The position numbers were made by a program, and so were the translations under genes. This document shows positions 26,692-44,307 of a stretch of DNA of 64,000 nucleotides, piece after piece. Every line of letters starts with the position of its first letter. The first letter of the stretch is position 1. The notes beneath the pieces were generated by a model. That model was not told the origin of the DNA and made no database searches. It saw nothing but the letters and a program-made list of their open reading frames with translations. Source of the DNA: Candidatus Micrarchaeia archaeon. GTDB taxonomy: Archaea; Micrarchaeota; Micrarchaeia; Anstonellales; J096. The stretch covers positions 26,827 through 90,826 of the forward strand of contig JBGQMY010000001.1 of assembly GCA_041500865.1 (NCBI GenBank), written 5' to 3'.

Positions 26692-27240
26692 TCAGGCACC
26701 GCCCCATATGCAATCCAGGAAGCTCTTTCCGAACGGGATTGTGTTACTGCCAATCAGCTCTTTTGTGTCCTCAAAATGGACGAGCGCAAGCCTCATCTTT
26801 CCCCTTCCGTTGGCAAAGTCCCATGCGTTGTTCGCCTCGCGGCTGCAAGTTTCGTAGATGTCGGGGTCTGCCCCATGGAAAACCAGCAGCAACGAGGCAT
26901 CATAGTGGTTGTTGATTATGGCAGCCATAAGCGCATTGTAGCCATTGCTGTCCTGCTGGTTGGCGTTTGCCCCGTTTTTGAGAAGAATCCTGCATATGTC
27001 CGTACAGCCCTTGGAGGCGGCGATGGAAAGCATTGGCTGACGCTGAAACGGCTTGCCATTGGACTTTGTATTAGGGTTTGCGCCTTCCTTGATGCATCTG
27101 GAGACAAGGGAAACGTCCCCGGTCTTTACGGCATATTCAAGCGAATAATCCGCCAGGTCCTGCTTATCAGAATCAGTTGTTTTGAGCTTGGCAAGGTTTG
27201 GCTTCTTTTGCTGGTCTTTTTCCTGCTTTTGGAGCTGCAT
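26692..27240 (-). CDS. Ankyrin-repeat protein with FxxxFxxC tail
   Basis: GANPN and GYNALMAA repeats; ends FGKSFLDCIWGGA. Confidence 0.9.
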   Translation of the reverse strand: MQLQKQEKDQQKKPNLAKLKTTDSDKQDLADYSLEYAVKTGDVSLVSRCIKEGANPNTKSNGKPFQRQPMLSIAASKGCTDICRILLKNGANANQQDSNGYNALMAAIINNHYDASLLLVFHGADPDIYETCSREANNAWDFANGRGKMRLALVHFEDTKELIGSNTIPFGKSFLDCIWGGA

Positions 27241-27900
27241 TCAGGCACCACCCACGCATTCGCGGAAGGATTTCGTGAATGAAACCATTCCCTCTTGCCC
27301 TAGGGACCTGCGCATGCGGTTAAAGAAAATCAGCAAACCTGCGACTTCGGGATGTTCGGCCCATACTGCCCTGCGCCAAGGCGCCCAGCCTTTTTTGTCC
27401 TTTGCTGTCATGTCGGCGCCGTTTTCAATCAGCAATGCGCATACGTCAATGTGCCCGGCCCAGGCTGCGCAATGGAGCGGCGTGTTGCCATCTTCGTCCT
27501 TTGCATTGACATCCGCTCCTTTGCTTATCAAAATGGCGCAGGCGCGGGCGTTTCCGCCGTTTGCGGCATGGTGCAGGGCCGCACTGCCGTGATTGTCCTT
27601 TAGCTCCATGTCAGCGCCGTTTTCAATAAGCGCTGAACAGGCTTCCGGGGTGCCGTGCTTTATCGCATAATGCAGCGGCGTCTGGCCGTCCTTGTCCGTA
27701 GCATTGACATTTGCTCCGTCATGAATGCTTTGCTGGATTCGTTCAATATCTCCATCAAGTGCGCCATTGAACAGCGCATTGGTCCTAAGAAGCTGGCCGT
27801 AGTCCTGCGGCTTTGGGCTTTTTTCCAGCAATGTTTCATCAGGCAGCCTGGGCTTCTGGGGCTGGGAACCGCTTTTTCCTGCTTTCCGGCTTTCCTGCAT
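27241..27900 (-). CDS. Ankyrin-repeat protein with FxxxFxxC tail
   Basis: GQTPLHYA and GNTPLHCAA repeats; ends FTKSFRECVGGA. Confidence 0.93.
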   Translation of the reverse strand: MQESRKAGKSGSQPQKPRLPDETLLEKSPKPQDYGQLLRTNALFNGALDGDIERIQQSIHDGANVNATDKDGQTPLHYAIKHGTPEACSALIENGADMELKDNHGSAALHHAANGGNARACAILISKGADVNAKDEDGNTPLHCAAWAGHIDVCALLIENGADMTAKDKKGWAPWRRAVWAEHPEVAGLLIFFNRMRRSLGQEGMVSFTKSFRECVGGA

Positions 27901-28001
27901 GCTTCCGCTTATTGCAACAGACCTGTTAAAAACCTATCCGGCACAGCCAAGTCGGCTGTGCAAAAAGCTTAAAAAACCTTACAGATATATAGTAATTTTT
28001 A

Positions 28002-28595
28002 ATGGCCAATGAAACTTTCGCAAGAGGGGCGGAAAGGCCCGGAAACAGAACGCTTTCTTATGGCAAGGAACCTCTTTTTGACAGCCAAACGAAGCGCTGG
28101 CAGGATAGCGCGCTCCTAGTAGCAGTGCGCAACAGGAGCGTGGAAAGCGCGCTAATGGCAATAGACAAAGGCGCAAGCATAGACACAAAGGACATAAGCG
28201 GCAGCACTGCGCTGATGATAGCGGCTGAAAGCGGTGATGCGGCTATGTGCAGGGCTCTTCTGTGCAAAGGGGCCGACATTGAGGCAAGGATGATAAACAC
28301 CGATATCGGGCTCGGGACGTGCGAAACCGCGCTGATAACTTCGGCAAAGCACGGCAAAAAAGACGTTTGCATCCTTTTGCTGGAAAAAGGCGCAGACCCA
28401 AACGCAAAAGACAGGTACAAGACAACTGCGCTCATGTATGCTGCGCAGTTGGGGCATCCGGACGTTTGCACGGCCCTGCTGGAGCATGGGGCGGACCCGC
28501 GCCTAAAGGACGTGAACTTAATGACTGCGCTCCAGCTTTCAAGGAATGGCGCAAGCGAGGCCATACAGGAATACCTTGCCCATTTTAAAGTGTAA
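28002..28595 (+). CDS. Ankyrin-repeat protein without the FxxxFxxC tail
   Basis: GSTALMIAA and TTALMYAA repeats; ends EYLAHFKV. Confidence 0.92.
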   Translation: MANETFARGAERPGNRTLSYGKEPLFDSQTKRWQDSALLVAVRNRSVESALMAIDKGASIDTKDISGSTALMIAAESGDAAMCRALLCKGADIEARMINTDIGLGTCETALITSAKHGKKDVCILLLEKGADPNAKDRYKTTALMYAAQLGHPDVCTALLEHGADPRLKDVNLMTALQLSRNGASEAIQEYLAHFKV

Positions 28596-28637: not shown

Positions 28638-30065
28638 ATGGCTGTGCAAACGATAACCAAGGAAAAAAGCGTGCCCGCAAGGAGGATGGACCTTTCCAGA
28701 TTCAAACCAGACACAAAAAGGATAGAAAAGGAATGGGACCACCACGGCAGCTACCAGTGGACATATTTCGTTGAGGAGCAGAAACGACTCATTAATTTTT
28801 TCCTGTCAGAAAGGGCAGGCCCAAGGAACCTGGAAATCGGCGGGGGCTGGTACCAGTCATACCCAGGCTCAACCGCCATAGACGTATCAGCAGTATGCCT
28901 GGAATACAACGAGGCGCGGAAAAAGGTGCAATATGACCTGGATTATGTAGCTGCCGGCTGCACGCTGCCGTTCAAGGACCGTTCGTTTGACTCCGCAACC
29001 ATGATAAGCGTCTGGCAATACCTCCAAGACCCTGTTGCATTGCTGAAGGAGCTGGAAAGGGTGCTTGCGCCGGGCGGCGAGGTCTATGTCATCAACGGCC
29101 AGGGGGGAGGCGTGGAAGGGCTTGTGAAAAGCGCGTCAAGGTCTGAATCGATATTGGAAACGGCAATGCGATGCGGGTACGACGCAATGCTGCAAACCAT
29201 CCCGACAATGGATGGCGAGAGGGACACGTTCAAGTCTGTGTGCATCGCAATGCCGGACAGCACGCTGTTCGGCAAAAAATCGCAGATAATTGACAAAAGC
29301 AAAAGGGCAAGGAGATTGGGCAGCCCAGGGGAATTCCTTGAAAGATACGCGGAATGGGAACTTGAAAAAATCATGGGAAAGCTTTGGCAGCTTAGGACGT
29401 ACCCGGTAACTGAATATTCTCGGCATTACCTTGAAGCGTGCGAGAATGCAAGCCAAGCGTTCAGCAAGAAAGCAGGAAGGTTCCCTGTCCTTTATTCGGA
29501 ATCGCACCAGGTCGAGATTGACATGTACGTCAAAGGCGGGTTCATAATGAGCCACGAGCTGATGATGGATGGTGTTTCCAACAAGGAGCCATTCAATGAT
29601 TTTGCAAAACCGTTTGGGATTGGGTTCAGCGGATACTACGGCAGTTCTGTCAGCGATTACATCAAAAGGCACTTGGAAGGGAAGAACATCCTCCCGGAGA
29701 TTCGCTCTGATTGGGGAAGGACGCGGGAAAGGGACGGCGCAATCTATAGCCTTGCAAGCTTCATCGTGTCAATACCGTTGAACAGCCATACGAAAAGCCT
29801 GCAGCAGTCCTTGCTTGAAAAGCTGGAGAAGGAGGCACCTAATGCAAAGGATGTGGTTGCTAGGGCAACGGCCAGGCGCCTGTATTCGTTATGCTACGAA
29901 TACAAGCAAAGGAGGGGCATTGACAAGCTCATAAAAAGGAAAAGCGAACTAGGGGGAATGGAAGTAATCAAAGAGGCGGCCCTTGACATTGAAAAGGAGT
30001 TTCCCTACTTCAGGAACTTCATTTTGGAGATTCCCATGGCTTGCGACGATTCCGGCATGGATTGA
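28638..30065 (+). CDS. Class I SAM-dependent methyltransferase domain fused to an unknown C-terminal domain
   Basis: Motifs LEIGGG, LPFKDRSFDSA and ELERVLAPGG; about 280 further residues unassigned. Confidence 0.78.
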   Translation: MAVQTITKEKSVPARRMDLSRFKPDTKRIEKEWDHHGSYQWTYFVEEQKRLINFFLSERAGPRNLEIGGGWYQSYPGSTAIDVSAVCLEYNEARKKVQYDLDYVAAGCTLPFKDRSFDSATMISVWQYLQDPVALLKELERVLAPGGEVYVINGQGGGVEGLVKSASRSESILETAMRCGYDAMLQTIPTMDGERDTFKSVCIAMPDSTLFGKKSQIIDKSKRARRLGSPGEFLERYAEWELEKIMGKLWQLRTYPVTEYSRHYLEACENASQAFSKKAGRFPVLYSESHQVEIDMYVKGGFIMSHELMMDGVSNKEPFNDFAKPFGIGFSGYYGSSVSDYIKRHLEGKNILPEIRSDWGRTRERDGAIYSLASFIVSIPLNSHTKSLQQSLLEKLEKEAPNAKDVVARATARRLYSLCYEYKQRRGIDKLIKRKSELGGMEVIKEAALDIEKEFPYFRNFILEIPMACDDSGMD

Positions 30066-30113
30066 AAAAAGGCGATTGGCTTGCTTTTAAAAGCCAATGA
30101 CTAAAATGATTTC

Positions 30114-32906
30114 ATGCCTGGATTCAAGGACTTGGGCAACGCAACCTGGCTCATGGAAAAGGAAGGAATCATGCGGGTTCCTGCAGTCATAATCGGCACA
30201 AAGGCCTTGGTTGACGCCATGAGCAAGGACAGGACAATCGGCCAGCTCAGGAACATGGCATCATTGCCAGGAATAGTCAAGAACGCAGTGCTTATGCCAG
30301 ACGGCCACGAGGGCTACGGCTTCCCGATAGGCGGGGTTGCGGCTTTTGACAGCGAAGAAGGCATCGTTTCACCGGGCGGAATCGGATATGACATAAATTG
30401 TTTGCTTCCAAAAACGAGAATAACGAACGCGTATGGATATTATCGGAATATTGAAAACTATCAGTCTTACTTTTCAAAAAAATATGAAAAGAACGGGGTT
30501 TTATTGTTTGATGGAATGACAAGGATAAGTAGCGGAAGGAAATACGGAAATGCAACACATTACATGCACAAGAGATATTCCGGAAAAATCTATGAGATAA
30601 CTGCCATGGCCGGGAAGATAAAAGCTACGCCAGACCATCCCTTTATCACAAAAAAAGGGAAAATGCTGCCTGGGCATTTGAAAAGGAATGACTTCATACT
30701 ATCCTATCCTTTTGAAGGCATCCGCTATAGAAGATATTGCAAAAATGAGGATGAACTGGCGATTTACGCCAAACTTATAGGATATGCCACTGGAGACGGC
30801 AGCATAACATCAGGTAATGGCAAGAGAAGTGTCCGGTTCTATAGCAAATACAAGAATGACCTTGAAGATATATTAAGAGATATAGAAAAGCTGGGGTATA
30901 ATGGAAGTATATTTGAAAGGACCAGAAAGCATGATATAAATGGAAAAAAATTTACATCAACATCATTTGAGCTTGTGGTATATGCTAAGAAATTTGCCGA
31001 AAAAATGCTGGAATTTGGCTGTATAGAGGGACTCAAAACAGAAAAGGATGTTAGGGTGCCCAAATGGATAATGAAAGCGCCGTTGTGGATAAAACGATTG
31101 TATCTTGCCGCATTTTTTGGCGCGGAGATGTCTTCGCCAAAAACGTCAAGCAAAACCGGATTTTATATGCCGCAGATCAGCCAAAATAAGATAAAGTCCA
31201 AGGAAGGGAGCCTCAGGCAATTTTTTAGCGATATTTCAGAGATGCTGGATGAATTTGGGGTCAAAACAAACAAGGTAAGCTTTGTCGAAAAGATAAAATC
31301 AAAAATCAGATTGAGGATTATTCTTGGCGGAAGCGAAAATGACATAGAAAGACTTTATTCAACCATAGGCTTTGAATATAATGAGGAAAGGATGTTCAAG
31401 GCGCTTGCGGCCATTCTTTATATACGGATGAAAAGGCTGCATCGGCAAAAAAGGGAAGAAACAAGGAAAATGGCGCAAAAATACAGGAAAGCCGGAATTG
31501 GTCTGAAAAATGTCCAGAAAAAACTTGTTTCAAAATGGGCAAATTCCAGATTCATAGAAAGGGCATATTATGAAAACGTTTCTCCAAGAGCGCCATTGGA
31601 TATCCAAAGCTTTAATGAATTTGAAAATCACCAGAAAAAGATATACAAAAAATATGGCGCACTTGAAGATATAGTGTTGGACATCAAAACAAGCGAGTAT
31701 TCTGGAAAAGTATATGACTTCAGTGTTGAGAAGATGCATAAATTTGTAGCTAATGGCATATTGGTATCAAACTGCGGCGTCCGCCTGCTCAAGACCGGGC
31801 TGGAAAAGGGCGAGGTTGAAGAAAAGAGGCGCGACATAATAGAGTCAATATTCCACGAGGTGCCAAGCGGCGTAGGCAGTGAAAGCGACAACAGGATGAC
31901 GGTTGAATCGCTGGACAGCATCGCGGAGCTTGGGATGGACTGGGCAATTGACAACGGCTATGCAGAAAAATCCGAAAAAGGGAGGATAGAGGAATACGGC
32001 AGGATGGAAGGCGCAGAGCCGTCAAAGACGTCTGCGACTGCAAAGGCAAGGGGAAGGCGGCAGGTGGGAACGCTTGGCGCAGGCAACCATTTCCTTGAAA
32101 TCCAATACGTTGAAAAAATCCTGTATCCGGAGATTGCAAAGAAATTCGGGCTTCATGAAAATCAGGTGGTCATGATGATCCACACGGGCTCAAGGGGATA
32201 TGGCCACCAGATAGCGTCAGATTACATAAACGCGATAATGAGGGAAGGCCTGCCAAAAGGCATCCCCGACCCGGAGCTTGCATACGCAAAACTGGGAAGC
32301 AAGGTTGCGGACGATTACCTTTCGGCAATGAAGTGCGCGGTCAATTTCGCGTTCGTGAACAGGCAGATGATAACGCACAACGTGAGGAATGCGTTCAACA
32401 AGGTATTCGGCAACGTTGAGCTGGAGCTGCTTTACGACGTGGCGCACAATATAGGGAAATACGAGAAGCACAGCGTTGACGGGAAAAACAGGGAGCTGTT
32501 CATACACAGGAAAGGCGCTACAAGGGCGTTCCCGGCAGGCAGGGAAGAGCTCCCTTCAATATACAGGGAAACCGGCCAGCCTGTCATAATCCCAGGCTCA
32601 ATGGGCACCGCAAGCTACGTGCTGGTCGGCGAGCAGAAAGGGCTGGACGTAAGCTTTGGCTCAACGTGCCATGGCGCAGGAAGGGCGCTGAGCAGGCATG
32701 CGGCGATACGGGAGTTCAAGAGCGACAATATAATAAAGCAGCTTGCGAAAAACGACATCTATTTCAGGTCGGATTCCAAAACCGCGGCATCGGAGGAGGC
32801 GCCTGGCGCGTACAAGGACATTGACGAGATAGTAAAATCGGTGGAATTGGCAGGCATAAGCAGGATTGTCGCAAGGCTGAGGCCGATTGGCGTTGTGAAA
32901 GGCTAA
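30114..32906 (+). CDS. rtcB: RNA-splicing ligase RtcB, intein-containing
   Basis: Motifs MPDGHEGYGFPIGGV, GYDIN/CGVR, GTLGAGNHFLE, HRKGATRA and HGAGR. Confidence 0.96.
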   Translation: MPGFKDLGNATWLMEKEGIMRVPAVIIGTKALVDAMSKDRTIGQLRNMASLPGIVKNAVLMPDGHEGYGFPIGGVAAFDSEEGIVSPGGIGYDINCLLPKTRITNAYGYYRNIENYQSYFSKKYEKNGVLLFDGMTRISSGRKYGNATHYMHKRYSGKIYEITAMAGKIKATPDHPFITKKGKMLPGHLKRNDFILSYPFEGIRYRRYCKNEDELAIYAKLIGYATGDGSITSGNGKRSVRFYSKYKNDLEDILRDIEKLGYNGSIFERTRKHDINGKKFTSTSFELVVYAKKFAEKMLEFGCIEGLKTEKDVRVPKWIMKAPLWIKRLYLAAFFGAEMSSPKTSSKTGFYMPQISQNKIKSKEGSLRQFFSDISEMLDEFGVKTNKVSFVEKIKSKIRLRIILGGSENDIERLYSTIGFEYNEERMFKALAAILYIRMKRLHRQKREETRKMAQKYRKAGIGLKNVQKKLVSKWANSRFIERAYYENVSPRAPLDIQSFNEFENHQKKIYKKYGALEDIVLDIKTSEYSGKVYDFSVEKMHKFVANGILVSNCGVRLLKTGLEKGEVEEKRRDIIESIFHEVPSGVGSESDNRMTVESLDSIAELGMDWAIDNGYAEKSEKGRIEEYGRMEGAEPSKTSATAKARGRRQVGTLGAGNHFLEIQYVEKILYPEIAKKFGLHENQVVMMIHTGSRGYGHQIASDYINAIMREGLPKGIPDPELAYAKLGSKVADDYLSAMKCAVNFAFVNRQMITHNVRNAFNKVFGNVELELLYDVAHNIGKYEKHSVDGKNRELFIHRKGATRAFPAGREELPSIYRETGQPVIIPGSMGTASYVLVGEQKGLDVSFGSTCHGAGRALSRHAAIREFKSDNIIKQLAKNDIYFRSDSKTAASEEAPGAYKDIDEIVKSVELAGISRIVARLRPIGVVKG
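30399..31772 (+). mobile_element. Intein (458 aa) with LAGLIDADG homing endonuclease
   Basis: Begins CLLPKT, has block B ATPDHPF, endonuclease motifs LIGYATGDGS and YLAAFFGAEMS, and ends FVANGILVSN before Cys. It is more AT-rich than the exteins. Confidence 0.93.
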
Positions 32907-32909
32907 AAA

Positions 32910-35900
32910 TCAAAACGTTAGTTTGAAATACACGCTTACACCCCAGTTGTTGGGATTGAGCCTCTGCCTGGACATGTAGTTCCATGACCAGATGTCAGTA
33001 CTGTAATACGGCAGCGGGCCTGTGCCCCCTGCAACGCCTATGCCCCATTCGTTCGGCAGCCTCGTGTGGGTGTATTCCGCCCCAAGGCCTATATAATCCC
33101 TGGCATCCATGTACCTTCCATAAGTCAGGTGGAACTGGAGCTTGCCTCCGACCTGGTTGACGTCAACCCAGGCGCGGTCCAGCCCGGCCGTCACCGACCA
33201 GTCCTTTTCCGTCTGAAAGGTGTCAGGCGCGATTATCAGCTTATGACGTTTCCTGTCAGCAAACACATACCATGCAGTTGCTGCATGCTCTACAAGCGTG
33301 GGCGCCTCTACAGTCGTCCCGGTTATTATTACTTGCCACTCGTTCAGCTCCGCGTCGTTCATCCTCTTGGTTCCTCCGACTAGCCCCAGTATGATGTCGG
33401 ACTTTGCGGTCCTGCTCTGGTCGTCATTCTGCCTCAGGAATTTCCAAAGCAGCTGCCCGCTGCCGCCCCTTGTCGCAACAGCGGTTCCGGACACGTTCTG
33501 GTCGACCATGAGCGTAGGCCCGCCCAGAACCCTGAACCGGTCCTTCAGGCCGCCGCCCAGGAACAGGTCCGGGTAGAACTCGCCCTGCGTGCCCCTCAGC
33601 GTTGAGGTGATGCCCTCAAGCCAGCCTTTGACATTCTGGTTTGCGTCGCTGAAGAATAAATATCCTCTCATGCTCGCGCTCCTTGCCTCAAGGTCCGTTG
33701 CCCCGACAAGGTAGAACTTGCCGTCAACCCCCATGCCAAGCGCGTAGTTCTGCACATCCTTGGACTTGAGCTGGTCAGCGACTTCCTGGATTGCTGCTTT
33801 GTATATTATCGCAGCTTCTTGGGGATTTAGCGTCGCCTGCTCTTCTGCATTCGTGATGGTCTGGTTTATGCCGTTCATCCATTGCGGCACCTTCTCGCCT
33901 GCGGCGAGCATGTTGAACCTGTGGGCCCAGACAATCAGGGTCGCCATCCCGTATCCCTGCTGCTCAAGGTCGCCCATCTGGTCCCTGACCATTGAATACA
34001 TGTAGGTTCCGGAAACGAACGCCCCTGTGTTTTGCGCGTCGTTCCTCTTCCAGCCATAGACGTTGGTGAGGAAATTGGACATGTTTGACTGCAGCCCAAG
34101 CAGCTGCGTCTCGTCTATTCCGCTGTAAACGAGCGTTCCGCCAAGGCCGCTGAGGCCGGCCATTTTCTCTGTCTTTACCTGCAGGCCGCCCACATTGCTT
34201 CCTCCCAATACCGCTATTACTGCAGCGGACTTTGAGATCTCAGCAGGCACATACCTGTACTTTAGCTCAATGTTGAAGTTGTATTGCTCATTCCCTATGG
34301 AGGTTCTCCTGTACGTGCCGATTACCGCGTCGTCCTTGTTGAACACGTTTGACTTGGACAGGCTTGCCGCCTGCTCGTTGGCCACCGTGCTCAGGCTGTT
34401 CCCGTTCCTAAGGACTATCTGGTTCCATAGGCCTGAGGCTGCGACAGTCCCTGCAGTGAAGCCCACAGCGGCACCGTTGAATGGCGCGTCCTTGTCCGGT
34501 ATGTACGTTTTCAGGCTCGCAAGCACGTTGGTTGCGTTCGCCTCGCCGAACTGGTAGTTCATCAGCTTGTCCCTTGTGTCGGTGCCCATCCTGACCTCGT
34601 AGGCATCGCCGCCCTTTGTGACCCAGTACCAGCCCTCCTTTGTCCTTGAGTCCTTGTCATACGGGGAAAGCCCCCAGTTGCCCGTGAAATACGTAAGCAT
34701 GTCCCCTTTGTCCTTTGCGACAGGGGCGAAAAGCCTGGCTGCCTCGGTTGCCATGTTCCTTTCCTCATAGGTTCCGGCTGCCGTTGCCGTGTTGACGTTG
34801 AAGCCCATGTTGACCTTGCTGGCGTCAATGTCATGTGTCATGATGAAATTGTCGCCGGTCTTGCCGCCAGTCACTTCCGTTGTCACTCCGCCGCCGGCGC
34901 CGGTCTTTGCCACGCCCCTTGCGCCGACCTCGACGTACCTGTTCGCGGCCCCGAACCCGCCCTCCATGGAGCCGCCTATCCAGTCATTGTAATACTGTTC
35001 GTTGCCGTACCTTTTCGCGAATATCTTGTTCAGTTCCGTTATCAACGTATTGACATGCGCCCTCTCTATCCGGGCCATCTGCGGTACAGGCGGCCTGAAG
35101 TTGTTTCCTGGCGGGTTTAGCTCCGCATTGAGCCTGTTGTATATGTCAAAGGCGCCTTGCATCAGCAAAGGCATGGACCAGGAGAAGTAGCCGTTGTGGT
35201 AGTTCGCCTGGTTCGGCATGAGGCTCAGCGTCCTGTACTGCATAGGCACGTTGAGCATCGGGAAATAACTCCCCATCTTCGTCATCTCAGACTGTTTCAC
35301 GTCATAATAATACGGGCTCTCGTACGTCCTTGTCTTGTTCCAGATGTCATAGAAGAGGTCCTTGTGCGTGACGTTCGCCACCGGTATTCTTGGAAGGTCA
35401 GCGGAGATGGCTCTGAACCTCGAAAGCATGTTCTCCCTTTCTGTCATGTTGAAGACATTTTTGCTGAGCCTGGTCTGCAGTTGGGCGCCGAATGTCGCGA
35501 AAAACAGCTGCACGTCGGTGTCTGCATTGGACAGCTGGGCAAACGCCGGAACGACGTAATGCAGGTATCCTGCAATTAGGTACGGGTCCCTGGTTGAAAG
35601 CGTCATTATGTTCTCCATGAGCCCAGCATATGTCTTGGTGTCCGTTAGGCCCTTTGCCTCCAGGGCGTCGAGCGCGCCTCCAAGGAGCTTTACGTCCATG
35701 AGCGTCATTATTGAGAATGCCTTGTCAATCGCCAATGCCTTTGACGAAAGCGAGTCCTCTGTCATGCCGCCTGTGCCCTGGTAGTAATTCATTACCTTGG
35801 ACTTCAGGGCCTGGAACCTGCTCTTGTCGGATGAAAGCGCGTCGTAGTTCTGCGATATCCACTTGCCGAGCTGGACGGGATTAGATATTCCAAGCGCATC

Positions 35901-37067
35901 GCCGAGCGTTTGGAAGTCTATCCACTTTCCCATTGTCCTGTAGCTTCCATTGAAGACTGCATTGTAGTCGTTGAGCGCGTCATTGAACGTGCTCTTTTGC
36001 GCGGTGGACGCGCTGAGCGACATGAGCACCTCGCCCTTCAGTGGGTCTATCTTCCTAAGGGCGTCCACCGCGCCAGCAGATTTTTGGCGGCCGTAGAAGT
36101 CCGGCCTGAACAGGTATTTCCATTCATCGAAAATGCCTGCTTTGTCCAGATAGTATTTTATCATGCCAAGGTACAGCTTGTTTGCATCCGAAGACATCTT
36201 CATGCCCGAATAGATGTTGTAGGACCTGTCGAAGTTTGCCTTGTATTTCTCGTCCGTGGTGGAGACATATAGCGTGAAATTCTTCATCATGTTGGAAATG
36301 TCGTTTATCTTGTCCTGGTTCAGCATCCCTGTGTAAAACGAGACCATGGACGTCTTCGTGTCATTGTAGTTTTTTTCTCCGGATTCGTAGGCCTTTCTCA
36401 TGCCGTCTATCGCCGTTTCGGCGCTGGCCGCATAATTGAATATCATTGCCGATAGGTCCTTGTCGCCCATGGACTCAACTTTCTTGGAGTACGCCTGCAG
36501 GTCGACAAGTATGTCGTGTATCTTTGCCACTGTGTTCTTGACCCTGGTTGTGTCGGCAGGAGTCGTGCCTTCCTTCGGGAAAAGCTTCTGCGCCGCTTTT
36601 TTTGCCACCACCTCGGAGGACATGACGTTCGCGAAATCGGGGCCGTATTTTTCCCTTACGGCGTCTGGATTGGAGACGACGCTGTCCCTTGCATACTGGA
36701 TGGCGTCAAGGAAGTCTGCCCTTGAGAACCTGCCTGCCTTCTTCACGTACGCTTCCCTGAGCTCAGAATAGACATTCGGCTGGGAGGGCTTGGCCAGCTC
36801 CGACGGGCCGTACTTGTCGGCAAAGGACTTTATCGCCTTGTCCGCCTTTGCCTTGTTTTCGGCGCCGCCTTTCATGACGAAAGATTCAAAGGCCTTGAAG
36901 ACTGCTTCCCTGTCCTTCTCAATGCCCTTTTCCACTGCAACAGCGTTCTTGGATGTATCGCCCATGTTTTCACCGGCCGTTTTGAACTTCGCATAGGCCG
37001 GCCCTAATGCCAGCCCTGCAACAATGCTACTGTATATGATAGCTTTTTTAAAGTCAATGTGAGCCAT
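32910..37067 (-). CDS. Large secreted protein: helical N-terminal half and beta-rich C-terminal half (beta-barrel candidate)
   Basis: Sec-type signal ending AYA, alternating Gly/aromatic strands, and C-terminus WGVSVYFKLTF. Confidence 0.75.
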   Translation of the reverse strand: MAHIDFKKAIIYSSIVAGLALGPAYAKFKTAGENMGDTSKNAVAVEKGIEKDREAVFKAFESFVMKGGAENKAKADKAIKSFADKYGPSELAKPSQPNVYSELREAYVKKAGRFSRADFLDAIQYARDSVVSNPDAVREKYGPDFANVMSSEVVAKKAAQKLFPKEGTTPADTTRVKNTVAKIHDILVDLQAYSKKVESMGDKDLSAMIFNYAASAETAIDGMRKAYESGEKNYNDTKTSMVSFYTGMLNQDKINDISNMMKNFTLYVSTTDEKYKANFDRSYNIYSGMKMSSDANKLYLGMIKYYLDKAGIFDEWKYLFRPDFYGRQKSAGAVDALRKIDPLKGEVLMSLSASTAQKSTFNDALNDYNAVFNGSYRTMGKWIDFQTLGDALGISNPVQLGKWISQNYDALSSDKSRFQALKSKVMNYYQGTGGMTEDSLSSKALAIDKAFSIMTLMDVKLLGGALDALEAKGLTDTKTYAGLMENIMTLSTRDPYLIAGYLHYVVPAFAQLSNADTDVQLFFATFGAQLQTRLSKNVFNMTERENMLSRFRAISADLPRIPVANVTHKDLFYDIWNKTRTYESPYYYDVKQSEMTKMGSYFPMLNVPMQYRTLSLMPNQANYHNGYFSWSMPLLMQGAFDIYNRLNAELNPPGNNFRPPVPQMARIERAHVNTLITELNKIFAKRYGNEQYYNDWIGGSMEGGFGAANRYVEVGARGVAKTGAGGGVTTEVTGGKTGDNFIMTHDIDASKVNMGFNVNTATAAGTYEERNMATEAARLFAPVAKDKGDMLTYFTGNWGLSPYDKDSRTKEGWYWVTKGGDAYEVRMGTDTRDKLMNYQFGEANATNVLASLKTYIPDKDAPFNGAAVGFTAGTVAASGLWNQIVLRNGNSLSTVANEQAASLSKSNVFNKDDAVIGTYRRTSIGNEQYNFNIELKYRYVPAEISKSAAVIAVLGGSNVGGLQVKTEKMAGLSGLGGTLVYSGIDETQLLGLQSNMSNFLTNVYGWKRNDAQNTGAFVSGTYMYSMVRDQMGDLEQQGYGMATLIVWAHRFNMLAAGEKVPQWMNGINQTITNAEEQATLNPQEAAIIYKAAIQEVADQLKSKDVQNYALGMGVDGKFYLVGATDLEARSASMRGYLFFSDANQNVKGWLEGITSTLRGTQGEFYPDLFLGGGLKDRFRVLGGPTLMVDQNVSGTAVATRGGSGQLLWKFLRQNDDQSRTAKSDIILGLVGGTKRMNDAELNEWQVIITGTTVEAPTLVEHAATAWYVFADRKRHKLIIAPDTFQTEKDWSVTAGLDRAWVDVNQVGGKLQFHLTYGRYMDARDYIGLGAEYTHTRLPNEWGIGVAGGTGPLPYYSTDIWSWNYMSRQRLNPNNWGVSVYFKLTF

Positions 37068-37189
37068 AAATAATAGAATATAGATATAATAAGGTTTTTA
37101 AATAGTGTCTCAACGTGGATAAATGTATCAAACAGAAACATGAATAGTGGCAACAAAAGTTTAAAATGTTATATGCTGGAATGGTGCTT

Positions 37190-38629
37190 ATGGGCAAATA
37201 CGAGACAATACTCAACTTCTGCTTCAAGAAGGGCTATTTTTACCCGAGCAACGAAATTTACGAGAACATCGCGGGATTCTATGATTACGGCCCGATAGGT
37301 GCGAGAATAAAGCGGAAGATAGTCGACATCTGGAGGAATGTGTTCATAGACAGGCCAGGATTCCATGAGGTCGAGTCCACCATAATAGGCCCCGAAATAA
37401 TGTACAAGGCCTCAGGCCACGTTGACGAGTTCACTGACCCGGCAGCCGAGTGCCTCAACTGCCACTCAATAATAAGGGTGGACAAGCTTATAGAAGAAAA
37501 GCTCGGCATCCCATGGGACGGCAAGATGGAGACGCTGGAAAGCATACACAACCAGCACAAGCTCAAGTGCCCCGTATGCGGCGGAGAGATAGGCAAGTTC
37601 AGGAAAGTCAATTTGATGTTCAGCACGACCATAGGGTATGGCGGAACTGCGGCGTACCTTAGGCCTGAAACCGCGCAGGGCATTTACACCTCTGCAATAA
37701 GGAACGCCAAGACGCTTGGCCTGAAGTTGCCTTTCGGCATAGGGCAGATGGGAAAAGTTTTCAGGAACGAGATAAGCCCGAGGCAGGGCCTTTTGAGGCT
37801 GAGGGAGTTCTCGCAGCTTGAGCTTGAGTATTTCGTTGACCCGAGCAACTTCAGCTGCAGCATTTACGACAGGTACAAGGATATGGCGATTCCGTTCATG
37901 GCTCAGGACGGCAAGACCGTGAAGAATGTGAAGATAGGCAAACTGCTTGACGACAAAAAGATAAACAAGCCTTTCGGCTCTCTGCTCGGCATGGACATGG
38001 AAATGCTCACAAGGGCTGGCGTAGACATGTCAAAGGTCCGGTTCAGGCATTTGAGGGACGATGAGAAGGCGCACTACTCAAAGATAAGCGTTGACGTTGA
38101 GATTGAGACGTCTGCGGGCATCCTTGAGGTCATAAGCAACGCGCACAGGGCTGATTACGACCTCGGAAGGCACCAGCAGTTCTCTGGAAAGAATTTAACG
38201 CTTCAGACGGAAAAGGGAAACATAGTGCCGAACTGCGTTGAATCGTCTATAGGGCTTGACAGGCTGTTCTACTGCATAATAGACCACAGCTACAAGGAGG
38301 CGTCCAAGGAAAGGGAGAATGAGTGGCTCAGCATAAGCAAGGAGATAGCCCCTTACAGCGTTGCCGTGTTCCCGCTTGAAAGGAGGGACGGCCTTGACGC
38401 CAAGGCAAAGGAGGCCATGGACATGCTGACATCCAACGGCCTTTCGGTGTTCTACAGCGAGACAGGGAGCATCGGCAGGAGGTATGCCCGCGCGGATGAG
38501 ATAGGGATTCCGCTTTCCATCACTGTTGACTATGAGATGCTTGATTCCGGAACTATAACGCTCAGGGACAGGGAAACCATGAAGCAGGAAAGGATAAAGG
38601 TTTCGGATGCGCTGAAGAGGATATCATGA
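37190..38629 (+). CDS. glyS: Glycine--tRNA ligase, homodimeric type
   Basis: Motifs GFYDYGPIG, ASGHVDEF, YLRPETAQG, FRNEISPRQGLLRLREF and SIGRRYARADEIG. The start could be up to 24 nt earlier. Confidence 0.95.
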   Translation: MGKYETILNFCFKKGYFYPSNEIYENIAGFYDYGPIGARIKRKIVDIWRNVFIDRPGFHEVESTIIGPEIMYKASGHVDEFTDPAAECLNCHSIIRVDKLIEEKLGIPWDGKMETLESIHNQHKLKCPVCGGEIGKFRKVNLMFSTTIGYGGTAAYLRPETAQGIYTSAIRNAKTLGLKLPFGIGQMGKVFRNEISPRQGLLRLREFSQLELEYFVDPSNFSCSIYDRYKDMAIPFMAQDGKTVKNVKIGKLLDDKKINKPFGSLLGMDMEMLTRAGVDMSKVRFRHLRDDEKAHYSKISVDVEIETSAGILEVISNAHRADYDLGRHQQFSGKNLTLQTEKGNIVPNCVESSIGLDRLFYCIIDHSYKEASKERENEWLSISKEIAPYSVAVFPLERRDGLDAKAKEAMDMLTSNGLSVFYSETGSIGRRYARADEIGIPLSITVDYEMLDSGTITLRDRETMKQERIKVSDALKRIS

Positions 38630-39180
38630 AACTGCTTTTCGCGACGCACAACAAGGGGAAGCTTGCAGAGGCGCGGCAAATCCTTGGCCAGAAGGGGGTT
38701 GAGATAGGGCACCTTGAGGTTGAGTATGGCGAGCCGCGCGGGGAGGACACTTCCGAGATAGCGCGCAAGAGCGCTGAGCAGCTTTATCCGATCGTGAAAA
38801 AGCCGCTTTTCCTTGACGACAGCGGGCTTTTCGTTGATGCGCTGAAGGGATTTCCTGGGCCTTATTCCGCTTTTGTCTATAAAAGAATCGGATATGCCGG
38901 CATACTTAATTTGCTTAGCGGGAATTCCAACAGGAAGGCATATTTCAAGTGCTCAATTGCATATGCTGACGAAGACGGCGTCAAGGTTTTTGACGGGACA
39001 GTAAACGGCGGCATATCAAATGCGCCAAGGGGAGATGACGGATTCGGCTATGACCCTGTTTTCGTGCCTGACGGATTTTCCGAGACGTTTGCTGAGATGG
39101 ATGACAAGGAGAAGAACGCGATTTCGCACAGGGGAAAGGCATTGGCCCTGTTCGCGGAATGGGTGGCAAAGAAGGATTAG
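38626..39180 (+). CDS. rdgB: RdgB/HAM1 non-canonical purine NTP pyrophosphatase
   Basis: Motifs ATHNKGK, DDSGL, GFGYDPVF and SHRGKA. Confidence 0.95.
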   Translation: MKLLFATHNKGKLAEARQILGQKGVEIGHLEVEYGEPRGEDTSEIARKSAEQLYPIVKKPLFLDDSGLFVDALKGFPGPYSAFVYKRIGYAGILNLLSGNSNRKAYFKCSIAYADEDGVKVFDGTVNGGISNAPRGDDGFGYDPVFVPDGFSETFAEMDDKEKNAISHRGKALALFAEWVAKKD

Positions 39181-39950
39181 GCGGCGAGGCAATCGCTGAA
39201 GGATTTCATGAATGGGCTGAATGCTTCATTCCCAACCATTACCTCAAGCAATTTGGACGCAAGGAACTCCATGGGCAAGACATGCCCGCTCAGTATGGCC
39301 ATGCCCAATGGCGTATTGCCTGAATTGCTCCTTATGGCGATATCGGCGCCGTTTTCCATCAGCAGGGCGCAAGTCCTGGTGTCGATGTTGGTTGCGGCAT
39401 AGTGCAGTGGCGTCATTCCGGCATAGTCTTTTGAGTTGATGAGCTCTATTACGTTTCCGCCTGCTTTTGCGTATTCTTCTATCAGCAGTTTGCAGATGTC
39501 GGTATTTCCAGACGCTGCGGCACGGTGAAGGGCTGTCTTGCCGGCATTGTCCTTTGCGTTCACGTCCGCTCCCTTTTCAAGCAGTAAAGCGCAGGTCTCG
39601 GTATGTCCGTTCGCTACGGCATACATGAGCGCAGTTGTACCATAATTGCTCTTTGCGTTCACGTCCGCTCCGTTCTTTATCAGCATGGTGCAGGTGTCGG
39701 TGTGTCCGTTCACTGCGGCAAGCATGAGCGCAGTCCAGCCGTCCTTGTCCTTTGCCTCGATGGTTGCGCCTTTCTTGATGAGCCGCTCTATCTCATTGAT
39801 ATTGCTATTCTTTGCGGCGCTGATGAGTTCATCATTGAGTTTCTTCTGCGCTTCTTCTGGCACTTTTGGCTTCTCGCTTGGCAAAATATCGGCTTTATGG
39901 TTTATTGGTTTCTTTGTTGTACTCTTTAGGCTCCGCTTCCTTTCCTGCAT
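39177..39950 (-). CDS. Ankyrin-repeat protein with FxxxFxxC tail
   Basis: GWTALMLAA, GTTALMYA, GKTALH, GMTPLH and GNTPL repeats; ends FMKSFSDCLAA. Start trimmed to MQERKR. Confidence 0.93.
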   Translation of the reverse strand: MQERKRSLKSTTKKPINHKADILPSEKPKVPEEAQKKLNDELISAAKNSNINEIERLIKKGATIEAKDKDGWTALMLAAVNGHTDTCTMLIKNGADVNAKSNYGTTALMYAVANGHTETCALLLEKGADVNAKDNAGKTALHRAAASGNTDICKLLIEEYAKAGGNVIELINSKDYAGMTPLHYAATNIDTRTCALLMENGADIAIRSNSGNTPLGMAILSGHVLPMEFLASKLLEVMVGNEAFSPFMKSFSDCLAA

Positions 39951-40001
39951 GCATCCATCGTGCGGCAAAGGGATTAAAATGCTATTGGGCAATGAGATTC
40001 C

Positions 40002-40586
40002 ATGGACGAAGTCAAGGTTCTTGTTGAAGGCTATGCCAGGAGGATGAAAAACGGCTGGGCGGCAAGCTCCGCAGCTATATTGGTAAGAAGCAGCGGCAAA
40101 ACGATAATCGTTGACCCTGGCTGCAACAGGCAAAGGCTGATGGGCGCGCTGAAAAGGGAAAGGCTCAGGACCGGCGATATTGATTTTGTTTTTCTCACGC
40201 ACAGCCATTTTGACCATTCCATGCTTGCCGGCATATTTGAGAATGCGAAAGTGATTGACTGCGAGGAGATTTTCGACGGCGACATGCAGGTCTCCCATCA
40301 CGGGGCCATACCTGGAACAGGACTGAAAATAATCCAGACGCCGGGCCACACCGACGACCATTGCTCGCTGCTTGCAAACACGGAAAAAGGCGTGTGCGCG
40401 ATAGCCGGAGACGTCTTCTGGTGGGAAGAAGGCGAGAGGCAGTCAATTGACATAGGCAAGCCTGACGCCGCGCATCCCAGCGACGTGAAAAAACTTGCAA
40501 AAAGCAGGAAAATGCTGCTGGAAAGGGCGGACTGGGTAATACCGGGCCATGGCGGGCCGTTTAACACAAAGGGACGGCCAGATTGA
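40002..40586 (+). CDS. MBL-fold metallo-hydrolase
   Basis: Motifs THSHFDH, TPGHT, AGD and IPGHG. Confidence 0.9.
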   Translation: MDEVKVLVEGYARRMKNGWAASSAAILVRSSGKTIIVDPGCNRQRLMGALKRERLRTGDIDFVFLTHSHFDHSMLAGIFENAKVIDCEEIFDGDMQVSHHGAIPGTGLKIIQTPGHTDDHCSLLANTEKGVCAIAGDVFWWEEGERQSIDIGKPDAAHPSDVKKLAKSRKMLLERADWVIPGHGGPFNTKGRPD

Positions 40587-40758: not shown

Positions 40759-41295
40759 ATGGCAGGACCATGCGAAAAAGCAGCTACTGAGTTGGTTAAT
40801 GCTCTGTTCAAGGAGATGCCCGATGCATCCATAAAATCCTACATGGAAACGAAGCTCAACGAGAAATTCGTTGCGCAGTTCAAGTCCATGAAGGAGGATT
40901 TCCTCATGGAGGTCGTCCCAAAGCTGAACGACGTACAGGAAGACATGAAAGCAATCATAGCCAAGAAGGGCAAGGAGAACGTGAACTACGGCGTCGCAAT
41001 GCTCATGTATTATGCGGCAGCATGCAACGTCGGGAAGGACGAAATAAACAGCTTCCTTGTGTCATACGGCAAGGGCGGAAAGGAGCTGCTTGCGAAGTAT
41101 CTCAGCGCTTCAGGAAATGCCGCTCTTATTGAGAAAAAGACTGTGTCTGCGATGGAAGTCGCGCTCAGCCTTGAGGAAGCAGTGTCTGAAACTACGTTCA
41201 GGGCCTTCAGCACCGAACTCTACAAATTCGCGGAAAAGGGCAAGAAGGGCGCTGAAACTGAAGGAACGGACGTGCTTTACCACAAAGTAGCGTGA
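40759..41295 (+). CDS. Hypothetical helical protein, first gene of the AAA/VWA operon
   Basis: TTTAAA box and AGGTG upstream; 6 nt gap to the next gene. Confidence 0.78.
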   Translation: MAGPCEKAATELVNALFKEMPDASIKSYMETKLNEKFVAQFKSMKEDFLMEVVPKLNDVQEDMKAIIAKKGKENVNYGVAMLMYYAAACNVGKDEINSFLVSYGKGGKELLAKYLSASGNAALIEKKTVSAMEVALSLEEAVSETTFRAFSTELYKFAEKGKKGAETEGTDVLYHKVA

Positions 41296-41301
41296 TAGCC
41301 T

Positions 41302-43932
41302 ATGCCACAGGCGACCGTGCAGAGGTTCCCCTCGCTAGAGGAGGGCAAAAAAACCAAGCTGCACGGCGCACTTTCTTCTAAAACCGGAAAGTACGGGGAA
41401 ATGCTTAGGGTAATCCCACAGATAAGCACTTTTACGGTAAACAACACCATAAAGATGCACCCCGCGTTCACGTGCAACGCGATGTGCATGTTCCTGGACA
41501 TGACCATGGGCGAGAAGCAGCCCTTTGTCCCCTATCTTGTCGGAAACCCCGGGACGGGCAAGACGTTTGCGGCGGAGATGCTGCTTGACGTAGCCCTAAC
41601 TAAGATGAAGGGCGTGTTCTCGTCCCAGGAAGGCACCGAAAAAGGCATCACTGAAACGCTTGCGAAATGCGTGGACAACGGCATGCTGGAGTCCGACTTC
41701 AGGCCCGAAAAATCCAAGGCATTCGTCAAATACTTCGGAAAATCAAACGTGCTTGCTGAAATCGCCTCTGCCATGGCCGACGCGTATGCTGCCTCGCCGC
41801 CTGCAAAGATGGGGCAGATAAAGAGCAGGTTCGAGGAGATGATGATATCGCTCAAGGCGATAGCCAACGCGTCCGGGAAATCAAGGGATGAAATCGCGAA
41901 GGAGCTTGACAAAAGCATAAGCACGGATGTTTACGTTTTGCCTTCGGCGTCCTCCGCAACCGACATAATATCCGAAGAGGCCTATGTCATAAGCTCGTCA
42001 GGCATAGAAAGGGTGGTGAAGCACCCGATAATAAGGATGCTCGCAGAGGCTTACGAGGGAAAGATAAGCACGCTGATAATAGACGAGGCAAGCGAGACGC
42101 TGAAGGAGAAGGCCGCGGCAAGGGTGAAGAACCTCCATCCGCTGATTGACGCGCAGGTCAACGGAAAAACGCTGCTGGTTTCCATAAACCCGGAAAACGT
42201 GGACGAGGAAGGCAGGGACATGCTTGCGCAGCTCGGGTCCGCAGTGGAAAAAAGGATGAAGGAAGGCGGACTATGGGCAGAGGACAACATGGACGACATG
42301 AAGGCGCTGTCAAAGGACATAGGCGCAGCGCTTGAAGGAAAGAGAATCCAGCTGTCCATACCGATGCCCAATACGTCATGCATCATCATGACAGGCAACG
42401 TGAGGCAGGAATACGAGCAGATAGGGCTTACAGGGGCGACTTGGAGAAGGATACAGCCCATAATGTTCTCGTACCTGCCGCCGGAGCACATGGGGAAGTT
42501 CCTCAACGACCTTAAGGACAGGTACAAGCAGGAGCTAAGCGCCGCGATGGGAAGCGACTTCAATTCCATAGAGGCGGACATGGGCCAGAGGAGGGACGAG
42601 TTCGTGAGGAGGCTTGTTGACGTATACAGGAGCATGTACGACAGCTACGTGGCCGAGCCCGCTAAGTTCGCAAACAGGATGCTGCCTTCGCTCAGGAGCA
42701 TGGCATACGCGCTCAGGTCGTTTGAGAGCTACTACGCAATGTCAAGCATAATAAGGGAGTCCGATGACTTTGACAAGGTGGAGTGCGCGGAAATCTCGCT
42801 CAACCTGACTTCGCATGGCGGCCAAAGGTTCGTGGAGATGAAGAAGGACAAAAAAGGCCTGAAGGGGGTTCTGCCGAGCCAGCAGAGGTACGGCGAATTC
42901 CTGCTGGCGTCAATGGAGCTCTCGACATACATACCGGTCGGCAGCTTCACCGAGACCAGCGAGAGCAGGAGCGGCGAAAGCGAGATGACGCTCAGGTCAA
43001 AGGCAAGGGAGATATTCGCGGCAAGGGGCCTCAAGGGAGGCAGCACGCAGGAAAGGATGATATCCATAAGGCTCGGAAAAAAGGAATATGTGTATTCGGA
43101 GCCGAACTACATGTACGTGATGTACGGGCTTGCAAACTCCCTGTCAAGGCAGAGGCTGATGCTGCTTGTCGGGGAAAGCCAGGAGGGAAAGACGACGACT
43201 GTTGATTTCACGCAGGCGTTCCTCAGGGAAAACGGGAAGAGCTTCGGTTTCGACGAAGTGAAATACGTCGGCATAGACGACATAGAGGAGTTCACGCTAA
43301 GGACCCCGAACATAAAAAGGAGGGAACAGGGGACTGAAAGGGCCGTGAAGAAATCCCTGCTCAGGGAAACGGTGGAAGACGCCAACGCAAACCCCGAAAC
43401 GACGTTCATAGTCCGCGTGGACGAAGTAGACAATTTAAGGTTCTCGCAGGAGCTCAATGCGCTGTTCACCAGGGACAGGATAACGATGGGCGGCAAGGCA
43501 TACAACATAGGGAACATCGTAATCATGGGAACGTCCAACATATCCCGGATTATGCTGGACAACTTCGTGAGCAGGGGCGGCATACCCCTTGTCTTCACCG
43601 GGTCAACGTCAAAGGTTGAATATCCCGGCCAGAACTTCGACATAAGGAACATCTACCTCATGCATGCCGCTATGGAAAGGTCTCTCGGCAGCGCCGGAAA
43701 GGCCAATGAGATAATGGGGCACCTGCTGAGCGACGCGAACACGGTTGACCAGATATCAAGGATAGACTTTTATGAGATAGCGAAGACGCAGGGCAAGCTT
43801 GCATCCAAGTACATGGCTGCAGTTGAGAAAGGGATGCCGGCAGAGGACTACGTCGGCGCTGTCTCCGCATACATAAGGTCCATCACCCAAACCGACACTG
43901 AGCGGGAGCAGGTGAAGAGGGGGGCGGTCTGA
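41302..43932 (+). CDS. Tandem double AAA+ ATPase (MoxR/dynein-related type)
   Basis: AAA1 has GNPGTGKT, LIIDE, IMTGN and WRR. AAA2 has GESQEGKT, VRVDE, MGTSN and VSR. Confidence 0.85.
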   Translation: MPQATVQRFPSLEEGKKTKLHGALSSKTGKYGEMLRVIPQISTFTVNNTIKMHPAFTCNAMCMFLDMTMGEKQPFVPYLVGNPGTGKTFAAEMLLDVALTKMKGVFSSQEGTEKGITETLAKCVDNGMLESDFRPEKSKAFVKYFGKSNVLAEIASAMADAYAASPPAKMGQIKSRFEEMMISLKAIANASGKSRDEIAKELDKSISTDVYVLPSASSATDIISEEAYVISSSGIERVVKHPIIRMLAEAYEGKISTLIIDEASETLKEKAAARVKNLHPLIDAQVNGKTLLVSINPENVDEEGRDMLAQLGSAVEKRMKEGGLWAEDNMDDMKALSKDIGAALEGKRIQLSIPMPNTSCIIMTGNVRQEYEQIGLTGATWRRIQPIMFSYLPPEHMGKFLNDLKDRYKQELSAAMGSDFNSIEADMGQRRDEFVRRLVDVYRSMYDSYVAEPAKFANRMLPSLRSMAYALRSFESYYAMSSIIRESDDFDKVECAEISLNLTSHGGQRFVEMKKDKKGLKGVLPSQQRYGEFLLASMELSTYIPVGSFTETSESRSGESEMTLRSKAREIFAARGLKGGSTQERMISIRLGKKEYVYSEPNYMYVMYGLANSLSRQRLMLLVGESQEGKTTTVDFTQAFLRENGKSFGFDEVKYVGIDDIEEFTLRTPNIKRREQGTERAVKKSLLRETVEDANANPETTFIVRVDEVDNLRFSQELNALFTRDRITMGGKAYNIGNIVIMGTSNISRIMLDNFVSRGGIPLVFTGSTSKVEYPGQNFDIRNIYLMHAAMERSLGSAGKANEIMGHLLSDANTVDQISRIDFYEIAKTQGKLASKYMAAVEKGMPAEDYVGAVSAYIRSITQTDTEREQVKRGAV

Positions 43933-44307
43933 ATGGCAAAAATGATTACTGCGGCCGAGGCAAGGCAGGTTATCATGACGCTGGAAGGCGCGGAAAGGTT
44001 CGCGCCGGCCTGGATAGCGTCCGGCTCAAGGAAGAACGTTTCCGGCTTCAGGGACGCATACCAGTTCCTGGCAAAAAGGTTCGCAAAATACCTGGAAGGC
44101 AGGTTCGGCGCGGAAAAGATGGAAAAGGAGGCGTTCTCCCGCCTTTTCACCAAATTCCTCATGCCATTCTGCTCGCCTGAGTTCATGGAAGGGCATGAAA
44201 AAAGCCAGTACAAGGCATGGAAGGCCATTGAAAGGATGCTTGACAGCTGCATGGACGGCATGGACCTGGCCTACGCCATAGGGAACGGCGAGTTCGTGGC
44301 GGCTTAG
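43933..44307 (+). CDS. Hypothetical protein in the AAA/VWA operon
   Basis: Abuts the ATPase stop and is followed by AGGAGG before the next gene. Confidence 0.72.
   Translation: MAKMITAAEARQVIMTLEGAERFAPAWIASGSRKNVSGFRDAYQFLAKRFAKYLEGRFGAEKMEKEAFSRLFTKFLMPFCSPEFMEGHEKSQYKAWKAIERMLDSCMDGMDLAYAIGNGEFVAA

Follow-up and report, generated by a model that had tools for sequence, protein, structure and literature searches.

Transmembrane beta-barrels, the insertion of which depends on Omp85 proteins, are regarded as characteristic of diderm bacteria and their organelles. Can an archaeon encode such a barrel of its own and, if so, in which membrane would it reside? The question is raised by a gene for a protein of 1385 amino acids in a 64,000-nucleotide stretch (the window hereinafter; contig JBGQMY010000001.1, positions 26,827 to 90,826) of the genome of a tiny archaeon from sediment, a Candidatus Micrarchaeia member of the order Anstonellales (G000 in our set). 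A preliminary description, made from the sequence alone, had read this protein as secreted and as bearing the hallmarks of an outer-membrane beta-barrel. Two AlphaFold2 models and structure searches topped by transmembrane barrels support this reading: it is quite probable that the C-terminal domain is a true transmembrane barrel, and the protein as a whole is predicted to be a plugged, large barrel of the outer-membrane type in a domain of life where this fold is not established. If so, its family would be the first of archaeal transmembrane beta-barrels to be characterised, with a size equal to or above that of the largest single-chain barrel known. The gene and the parts of its product are laid out as follows:

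32910 to 37067, minus strand: the whole gene (P0001), an open reading frame that is intact and identical in public contigs
36990 to 37067, minus strand: Sec-type signal peptide with an A-x-A site (residues 1–26); a cleavage-site-like motif is present in 33 of 57 long homologues
35373 to 36989, minus strand: N-terminal region (residues 27–565), apparently helical, with a strongly negative lag-2 hydrophobicity correlation (z -3.9)
34983 to 35372, minus strand: Pro-rich segment of short helices, the predicted plug (residues 566–695), conserved in both subfamilies and mostly at 72–92 in the predicted local distance difference test (pLDDT)
32913 to 34982, minus strand: beta-barrel (residues 696–1385) as predicted by AlphaFold2 and structure searches, with 37 DSSP strands of mean length 11.6 residues
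33768 to 33881, minus strand: helical hairpin (residues 1063–1100) between strands 22 and 23, conserved in both subfamilies
32913 to 32945, minus strand: last strand, ending in Phe; of the full-length type I proteins, 34 of 38 have W, F or Y at the end (three partial ones were left out)

Searches of Pfam, NCBIfam and the PDB sequences gave nothing over the cut-off for the protein, and the case for a barrel comes from structure prediction. The first AlphaFold2 model of residues 566–1385, built from 48 rows, was confident only in the last 350 residues (pLDDT 62.7, predicted template modelling score (pTM) 0.56). The second, built with 77 homologues from both subfamilies, reached pLDDT 76.0 and pTM 0.74 (pLDDT 70.5–76.0 over the five models), with 579 of 820 residues at pLDDT of at least 70. 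In this model, the Pro-rich helical segment is followed by the 37 strands, interrupted by a helix at 767–787 and by the helical hairpin; together they form a predicted meander of antiparallel strands with short turns, and their mean length falls within the 9–14 residues typical of transmembrane barrels. By hydropathy and motif, the protein has a Sec signal, as had been described, and no transmembrane helix in the mature chain; the best 19-residue Kyte-Doolittle mean (1.31) is that of the signal peptide itself. The helix between strands 5 and 6, or a single strand outside the wall, could alter the parity of the DSSP count, and the wall probably consists of 36 or 37 strands. The computed diameter of a 36-strand ring is 6.7–7.0 nm.

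When the second model was compared with 48,161 PDB representatives, all 50 of the 50 matches listed were outer-membrane or mitochondrial barrels by title, the best of these at Z 14.0 and a root-mean-square deviation (rmsd) of 9.4 Å over 264 aligned positions. In 39 of the 50 alignments of a second comparison, the match starts at model residues 126–132 and ends at 820, and the porin is covered from its first strand to its end. Since the first and last strands of a porin adjoin, these alignments join strand 1 of the model with the last one, from which we infer that the predicted barrel closes; the pTM of 0.74 lends this further, indirect support. Among the matches listed, rmsd is never below 6.8 Å (range 7–14 Å), and this lack of a low-rmsd match favours a single wide ring over a fusion of two ordinary barrels. 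The top Foldseek matches are TonB-dependent receptors, LptD and PapC (E 1.7e-6 to 1e-4, probability 0.95–1.0); the beta-propeller, solenoid and S-layer folds named initially as alternatives are not among the best structural matches. Language-model neighbours (Tsx, Porin_O_P and Phage_OMP, at 0.87–0.89) serve as a lead only. Coevolution between adjacent strands is mostly above background in an alignment of 99 rows, and the strongest signal of the last strand is with strand 36. The strand belts of the family average 4.0 lipophilic outward positions and many end in aromatic residues, the inner faces being Gly-rich; the hydrophobic belt is presumed to face outward.

Several observations weigh against a transmembrane barrel, or against its details. 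Odd strand counts in predicted bacterial barrels are reported to be mostly miscounts (bioRxiv 10.64898/2026.03.07.710327), and we accordingly give the count as about 36. The Foldseek TM-scores are only 0.15–0.21, and the barrels of similar size, SprA and SlpA, are not among the matches listed for the second model, which does not exclude them. No coevolution pair links strands 1 and 37 in the 99 rows (1.0 and 2.35 versus a background 95th percentile of 3.1–3.2), and the signal between strands 2 and 37 appears in only one of two alphabets. Hydrophobic alternation is modest in the family (its score is reached in 45 of 2000 shuffles, p ~0.02; 60 type I rows of the 99), so that the amphipathic strands of the preliminary description hold for the family profile; they do not for the window protein alone, which is at chance (1555 of 2000 shuffles, and 73 of 500 in a second test). 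In dyad periodicity, the barrel region (z 0.3, or 1.2 when only its last 281 residues are taken) lies below all six E. coli barrel controls (z 1.0–3.3), in a test of low power, given that nine soluble controls (z -1.4 to 3.1) overlap with these six. A home-made amphipathic-window score was abandoned because it put helical membrane proteins at the top and failed to pick out the barrel gene.

These weaknesses bear on a different reading, namely, that the domain forms a large sheet or barrel of beta-strands outside any membrane, either a soluble cavity carrying lipids or macromolecules or a surface scaffold, the porin matches reflecting nothing but an antiparallel meander. Weak amphipathicity, the hydrophobicity of strands 6, 7, 20, 21, 30 and 32 on both faces, the high rmsd of all matches and the failure to find an insertase would fit. 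Nevertheless, we consider this unlikely: in the structure search with the first model, lipovitellin and ApoB scored probabilities of 0.10 and 0.16 versus 0.96–1.00 for LptD, the Gly content (12%) and the short aromatic-capped belts speak for a membrane wall, and the terminal aromatic residue is kept across most of type I. N-glycosylation sequons are not enriched either, unlike in many surface proteins of the genome, which is little informative given that the family holds 529 versus 563 expected (58 proteins) and the S-layer protein 6 versus 6.9.

Taking the transmembrane barrel as the preferred reading, to which of the known barrels would it belong? TonB-dependent transporters have 22 strands, LptD 26 and the PapC usher 24. 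These best Foldseek matches share with the archaeal protein a plug-like N-terminal segment before the barrel and a terminal aromatic residue, but identity is only 6–10% on top of the low TM-scores, the archaeal barrel has many more strands, and the protein carries a long helical arm in a genome without detected Omp85. With 37 predicted strands and no Pfam plug or barrel match, the protein falls outside the TonB-dependent transporters by strand count. The 16–18-strand porins (Occ/OprD, LamB, OmpF) and Tom40/VDAC give the highest Z (12–14.5), with their first and last strands mapping on the first and last strands of the model, but they cover ~240–280 residues at rmsd 9–10 Å, and the predicted ring has roughly double their number of strands. 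Deinococcus SlpA (30 strands) and the OmpM tethers resemble the protein in having a signal peptide, a long helical N-terminal part and a large C-terminal barrel, and were matched by the first model (SlpA, E 4e-5 to 4e-4) and the second (OmpM1, Z 11.7). However, the archaeal protein has no SLH domain in the Pfam scan, which places it outside this group; its distribution is patchy instead of universal and it changes fast, and its host carries genes for an S-layer protein and for the synthesis of archaeal lipids.

Like SprA/Sov, the translocon of type IX secretion in Bacteroidota with its 36 strands, the protein is predicted to form a single-chain barrel of about 36 strands, and SprA has been called the largest known barrel (bioRxiv 10.64898/2026.03.07.710327). 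We place the family outside SprA because no sequence or profile match was found (Pfam, NCBIfam, PDB); of the SprA entry, only chain F, not the SprA chain, is among the matches listed (Z 9.3). Furthermore, the archaeal barrel is built of 690 residues, its loops are short and its plug is covalently attached, and no type IX partners were seen, with no search aimed at them. Proteins that depend on the machinery for beta-barrel assembly (BAM) carry a C-terminal beta-signal, with a terminal aromatic residue and Gly at -6 as the bacterial consensus. The likeness here is partial: the final residue is aromatic in 34 of 38 type I proteins, Gly is found at -6 in at most one of these 38, and all 17 of 17 type II proteins run past the last strand into a tail. 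Thus, the alternating strand ending in Phe, although rare in the genome (2 of 847 genes of at least 150 amino acids), is not universal in the family, and its reading as a canonical BAM signal did not survive; with no Omp85 found, this puts the family outside the BAM-dependent proteins.

How widespread is the family? Residues 690–1385 had 25 matches among 1.84 billion cluster representatives, all of the same family, and further searches gave 3, 29 and 17. Most matches are unnamed; those with names are all from Micrarchaeota (including Candidatus Bilamarchaeum, itself of Anstonellales, the homologue of which is encoded in genome G390 of the same order as the window genome) or, in one case, 'Candidatus ainarchaeum sp.', a DPANN label. 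Profile searches detected the family in 34 genomes out of 401 from the phylum and in 61 of 176 genomes of Anstonellales, where it occurs in 58 of 99 genomes of family f9, in both genomes of its own genus and in none of the 16 others of its own family. Among genomes at least 85% complete, 43 of 311 are carriers, with 0 of 57 in f14, one weak match among 72 in f13 and 1 of 4 in f18. The lone weak match outside the order (G104:C1:59220-59420, E 5.4e-4) lies in an 823-residue frame of f13. A metagenome scan added one locus out of 595 pattern matches, and a BFVD structure search was uninformative (five rows at E <=0.001 with TM 0.09–0.20). Our literature searches found no description of this barrel family, most subscription papers and supplements being out of reach; the main text of a recent Micrarchaeota survey carries no mention of a barrel, porin or outer membrane (PMC12892359).

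Complete members range from ~1300 to 3100 amino acids and are usually encoded by one gene per genome, two in some. In a midpoint-rooted tree of 91 of the 99 rows, there are two subfamilies: type I, which includes the window gene, ends at the last strand, and type II has a Pro-rich tail. Although only ~15% identical, the two keep the same strand series, with 15 strands after the helical hairpin by our reading of the alignments, and are homologous along the whole domain (HHalign 100%, 811 columns, from two alignments that share rows). Alignments with truncated type II rows were misaligned and dropped, and the last ten type II strands align ambiguously to type I (A6, A9). Both subfamilies stand side by side in G390 and alternate in the same slot, type I in G000 and type II in G002. 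A structural outer-membrane protein would be expected to be universal; by contrast, this family is patchy, swapped and fast-changing, with a variable arm, which fits a partner-facing factor.

The N-terminal part is the most variable one. The preliminary description had it as helical and Lys/Ala-rich, of which the former still seems apt and the latter is only mild (K 8.7%, A 9.8% in residues 27–690). Many of the long homologues without a signal motif are gene calls that begin at the predicted cleavage site. By phmmer, only residues ~390–560 of the region 27–565 are common to distant homologues, in which the region extends up to ~1600 amino acids; it has no match in Pfam, NCBIfam or PDB, and the Atlas gave no usable hit for residues 27–690. 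In structure searches, residues 566–695 align with the plugs of TonB-dependent barrels and with the N-terminal segments of porins and VDAC, which points to a plug. Giant type I homologues (e.g., L051, L052, L053) have a ~300-residue helical insert after strand 27 that is homologous to the repeats of their own N-terminal arms, suggesting that insert and arm share one side of the barrel. Together with the signal peptide, the next ~90 residues make up a module specific to the genus, which recurs in a second giant protein (G000:C3:42676-48126, E 2.3e-10) and is possibly a common sorting or anchoring domain. The module (~130 residues, signal peptide plus helical part) was found in 3 of 176 genomes, all of the same genus, sometimes repeated, and also in a small open reading frame beside a tRNA-like sequence (G000:C3:59562-60044, L099) that looks like a frameshifted remnant. 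The second giant itself, of 1816 amino acids, was rejected as a barrel homologue (hmmsearch E 33; HHalign 0.1%), having only this module in common.

In which membrane, then, could the barrel reside? Omp85 (PF01103) was found in none of the 176 genomes of the order, including the 92% complete G000, by a search in which 7 of 14 controls passed the cut-off and the genomes were incomplete; POTRA (PF07244) was over the cut-off in none of five carriers. An S_layer_C protein is encoded in all five carriers tested (S_layer_N was not found in G000), and a gene of the PcrB/GGGP synthase family, indicative of archaeal lipid synthesis, in all five genomes tested. The lack of Omp85 together with the S-layer gene argues against a bacterial-type outer membrane, so that the archaeal outer membrane, one of the two locations proposed originally, has become less attractive.

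A second membrane of Anstonellales' own nevertheless deserves consideration, with the protein as its main porin and tether, comparable to OmpM or Deinococcus SlpA, the arm spanning the gap and insertion proceeding through an unrecognised insertase or unaided. The arm-plus-barrel architecture and the usual single gene per genome (two in some) would suit this role; an inner and an outer membrane had earlier been postulated in Micrarchaeota and Altiarchaeota (10.1101/2021.04.28.441871), a possible distant relative of PopA is reported in Altiarchaeales (PMC12228718), and our literature searches found no image of any Anstonellales cell. However, 115 of the order's 176 genomes yielded no such gene, 41 of the 63 near-complete ones among them; two cultivated Micrarchaeota, Ca. 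Micrarchaeum harzensis and Microcaldus ARM-1, are reported to have S-layers (10.1101/2021.04.28.441871; PMC11329633), and rapid allele exchange fits poorly with an essential structural protein. Combined with the Omp85 and S-layer results, this makes such a membrane unlikely.

We instead propose tentatively, with slightly less than even confidence, a self-inserting, plug-gated conduit at the cell-contact membrane, the partner's or the archaeon's own. The protein would be exported by Sec and lose its signal peptide; the C-terminal 690 residues would fold into one transmembrane barrel of ~36 strands, 7 nm wide, closed by the N-terminal plug, with the variable helical arm perhaps on the plug side. 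Insertion into the membrane at the contact site would proceed without the BAM machine, and the conduit would pass large molecules under the control of the plug, the arm choosing or spacing the partner. Self-insertion of BamA and SonA into liposomes has been reported (PMC13018214), which makes BAM-free insertion possible in principle. Target membrane and cargo are a matter of speculation: the partner cell's membrane is a doubtful candidate, and the own cytoplasmic membrane under the S-layer an unlikely one. In broader terms, part of Micrarchaeota may possess a native, BAM-independent, plug-gated barrel of ~36 strands that acts as a feeding or delivery port of symbiosis in the membrane of a partner, possibly a bacterium, or in an unseen archaeal second membrane; we regard this as a serious possibility, still on the weaker side of even. 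In ARM-1, host nanotubes of 6.7 nm are described as docking on a 21-nm barrel-shaped platform.

Gene neighborhoods at other loci give a hint of bacterial partners: there, the barrel gene follows genes with a PG_binding_1 (peptidoglycan-binding) domain (G254) or an SGNH hydrolase domain (three loci), and in Nanoarchaeota a prominent place of peptidoglycan hydrolases has been reported (PMC12352652). On the other side of the balance, of the partner genes at other loci none was found in G000, except for a small one of 135 amino acids; no anchor to the producing cell is evident and there is no known host; and Anstonellales are described as having sizeable biosynthetic capacity (PMC12892359). A native archaeal family of record size with no detectable insertase would bear on whether Micrarchaeota have a second membrane, on how DPANN cells connect to their partners and on whether very large barrels fold unaided. 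At 820 residues, the plug-plus-barrel domain is small enough for expression, refolding and measurement; a monomeric pore 7 nm wide could also be of technical use.

The ~135-residue protein adjoins or lies near the barrel gene at 11 loci (L039-L042, L048, L049, L051-L054, L006) and has no match in Pfam, NCBIfam or PDB; the G000 copy is on another contig (G000:C25:8066-8470). Our guess is that it may be SecB-like, and we take the gene that often accompanies it to be Trm56. A conserved signal-less protein is encoded near giant type I genes (L006:15704-18382, L053:15209-17578, L054:1419-3884, L051:15990-17552), with an SGNH/GDSL hydrolase domain as an optional insert at three of these four loci. 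In several f9 genomes, the barrel gene is preceded by orphans of 700–880 amino acids that have a hydrophobic helix at their centre (L007:3811-5904, L039:3437-5995, L047:2729-5272, L042:7303-9945); these are candidate membrane anchors, with no homologue found in G000.

Such signal-less neighbors raise the idea of a SprA-like pore in the archaeon's own membrane, through which proteins without a signal (ankyrin proteins, SGNH hydrolases) would be exported to the partner in one step. The size equals the 36 strands given for SprA (bioRxiv 10.64898/2026.03.07.710327), and G000 encodes 118 ankyrin-like open reading frames, 60 of them with a common C-terminal motif. This is improbable, however, given that ankyrin expansions occur without the barrel in G008, G050, G020 and G431, that the carriers G048 and G263 have a single ankyrin match each, and that no motor or chaperone gene is linked; an association between the barrel gene and the ankyrin expansion was looked for and not seen. 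The 118 ankyrin-like frames of this 1.04-Mb genome (in the window, e.g., 23791-28595, 39177-40361 and 47695-48291) mostly start without a signal peptide, judging by their N-termini, and with basic extensions; the 60 share an amphipathic C-terminal motif ending in F-x-[ED]-C, and the set has the look of a family united by one signal for export or binding. Comparable expansions are present in the two congeners and in G008, G050, G431, G313 and G020.

Finally, is the gene authentic? The reading frame of 1385 amino acids described initially, for which no strand had been given, lies on the minus strand (the plus frame across 32910-37067 is full of stop codons), and all eight of the eight peptides quoted from it are present (at residues 7, 929, 1015, 1290, 1309, 1325, 1341 and 1375). 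Three features surround it:

30114 to 32906, plus strand: rtcB with a LAGLIDADG intein (Pfam), a flanking gene outside the system
37095 to 37102, minus strand: TATA-like box, 28–35 bases upstream of the start codon, read from the intergenic sequence
37166 to 38629, plus strand: glycyl-tRNA synthetase (class II synthetase core and anticodon domain in Pfam; named glyS in the preliminary description), a flanking gene outside the system

The barrel gene converges with rtcB at a gap of 3 bp and diverges from glyS, and its standing alone behind the TATA-like box suggests a promoter of its own. The gene order glyS-X-rtcB recurs in G002 and at locus L085. GC content is 54.3% versus 52.6% in the coding sequence of the genome, and the codon usage is the fourth closest to the genome mean among 73 genes of at least 600 amino acids, in line with the host-like composition and lack of recent import noted before. 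One contig of public run X1, which may be a source of the same DNA, spans 29500-39680 without differences, and a contig from a different study (run X2) bridges the start of the barrel gene and glyS, also with 0 differences. The gene is real and native, free of mis-assembly and chimerism. Bacterial contamination, mis-assembly or recent import of an outer-membrane gene, which the fold typical of diderm bacteria might bring to mind, can be dismissed for this locus in view of the contiguous, uniform contig and the independent bridging one, the synteny in three genomes, the host-like codons and the homologues, all named ones being labeled Micrarchaeota or DPANN and all 25 of 25 matches in the 1.84 billion proteins belonging to this family; an ancient transfer is possible.

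The rtcB intein is low in GC in G000 and G002, and the rtcB of the relative L085 has no intein. Elsewhere in the window, at 40759-47698, four co-oriented genes encode a 178-residue orphan, an 876-residue double P-loop (AAA-like) protein, a 124-residue orphan and a 1125-residue protein without a Pfam match, in which a vWA-like motif can be made out by eye; the set resembles a MoxR/vWA chaperone pair.

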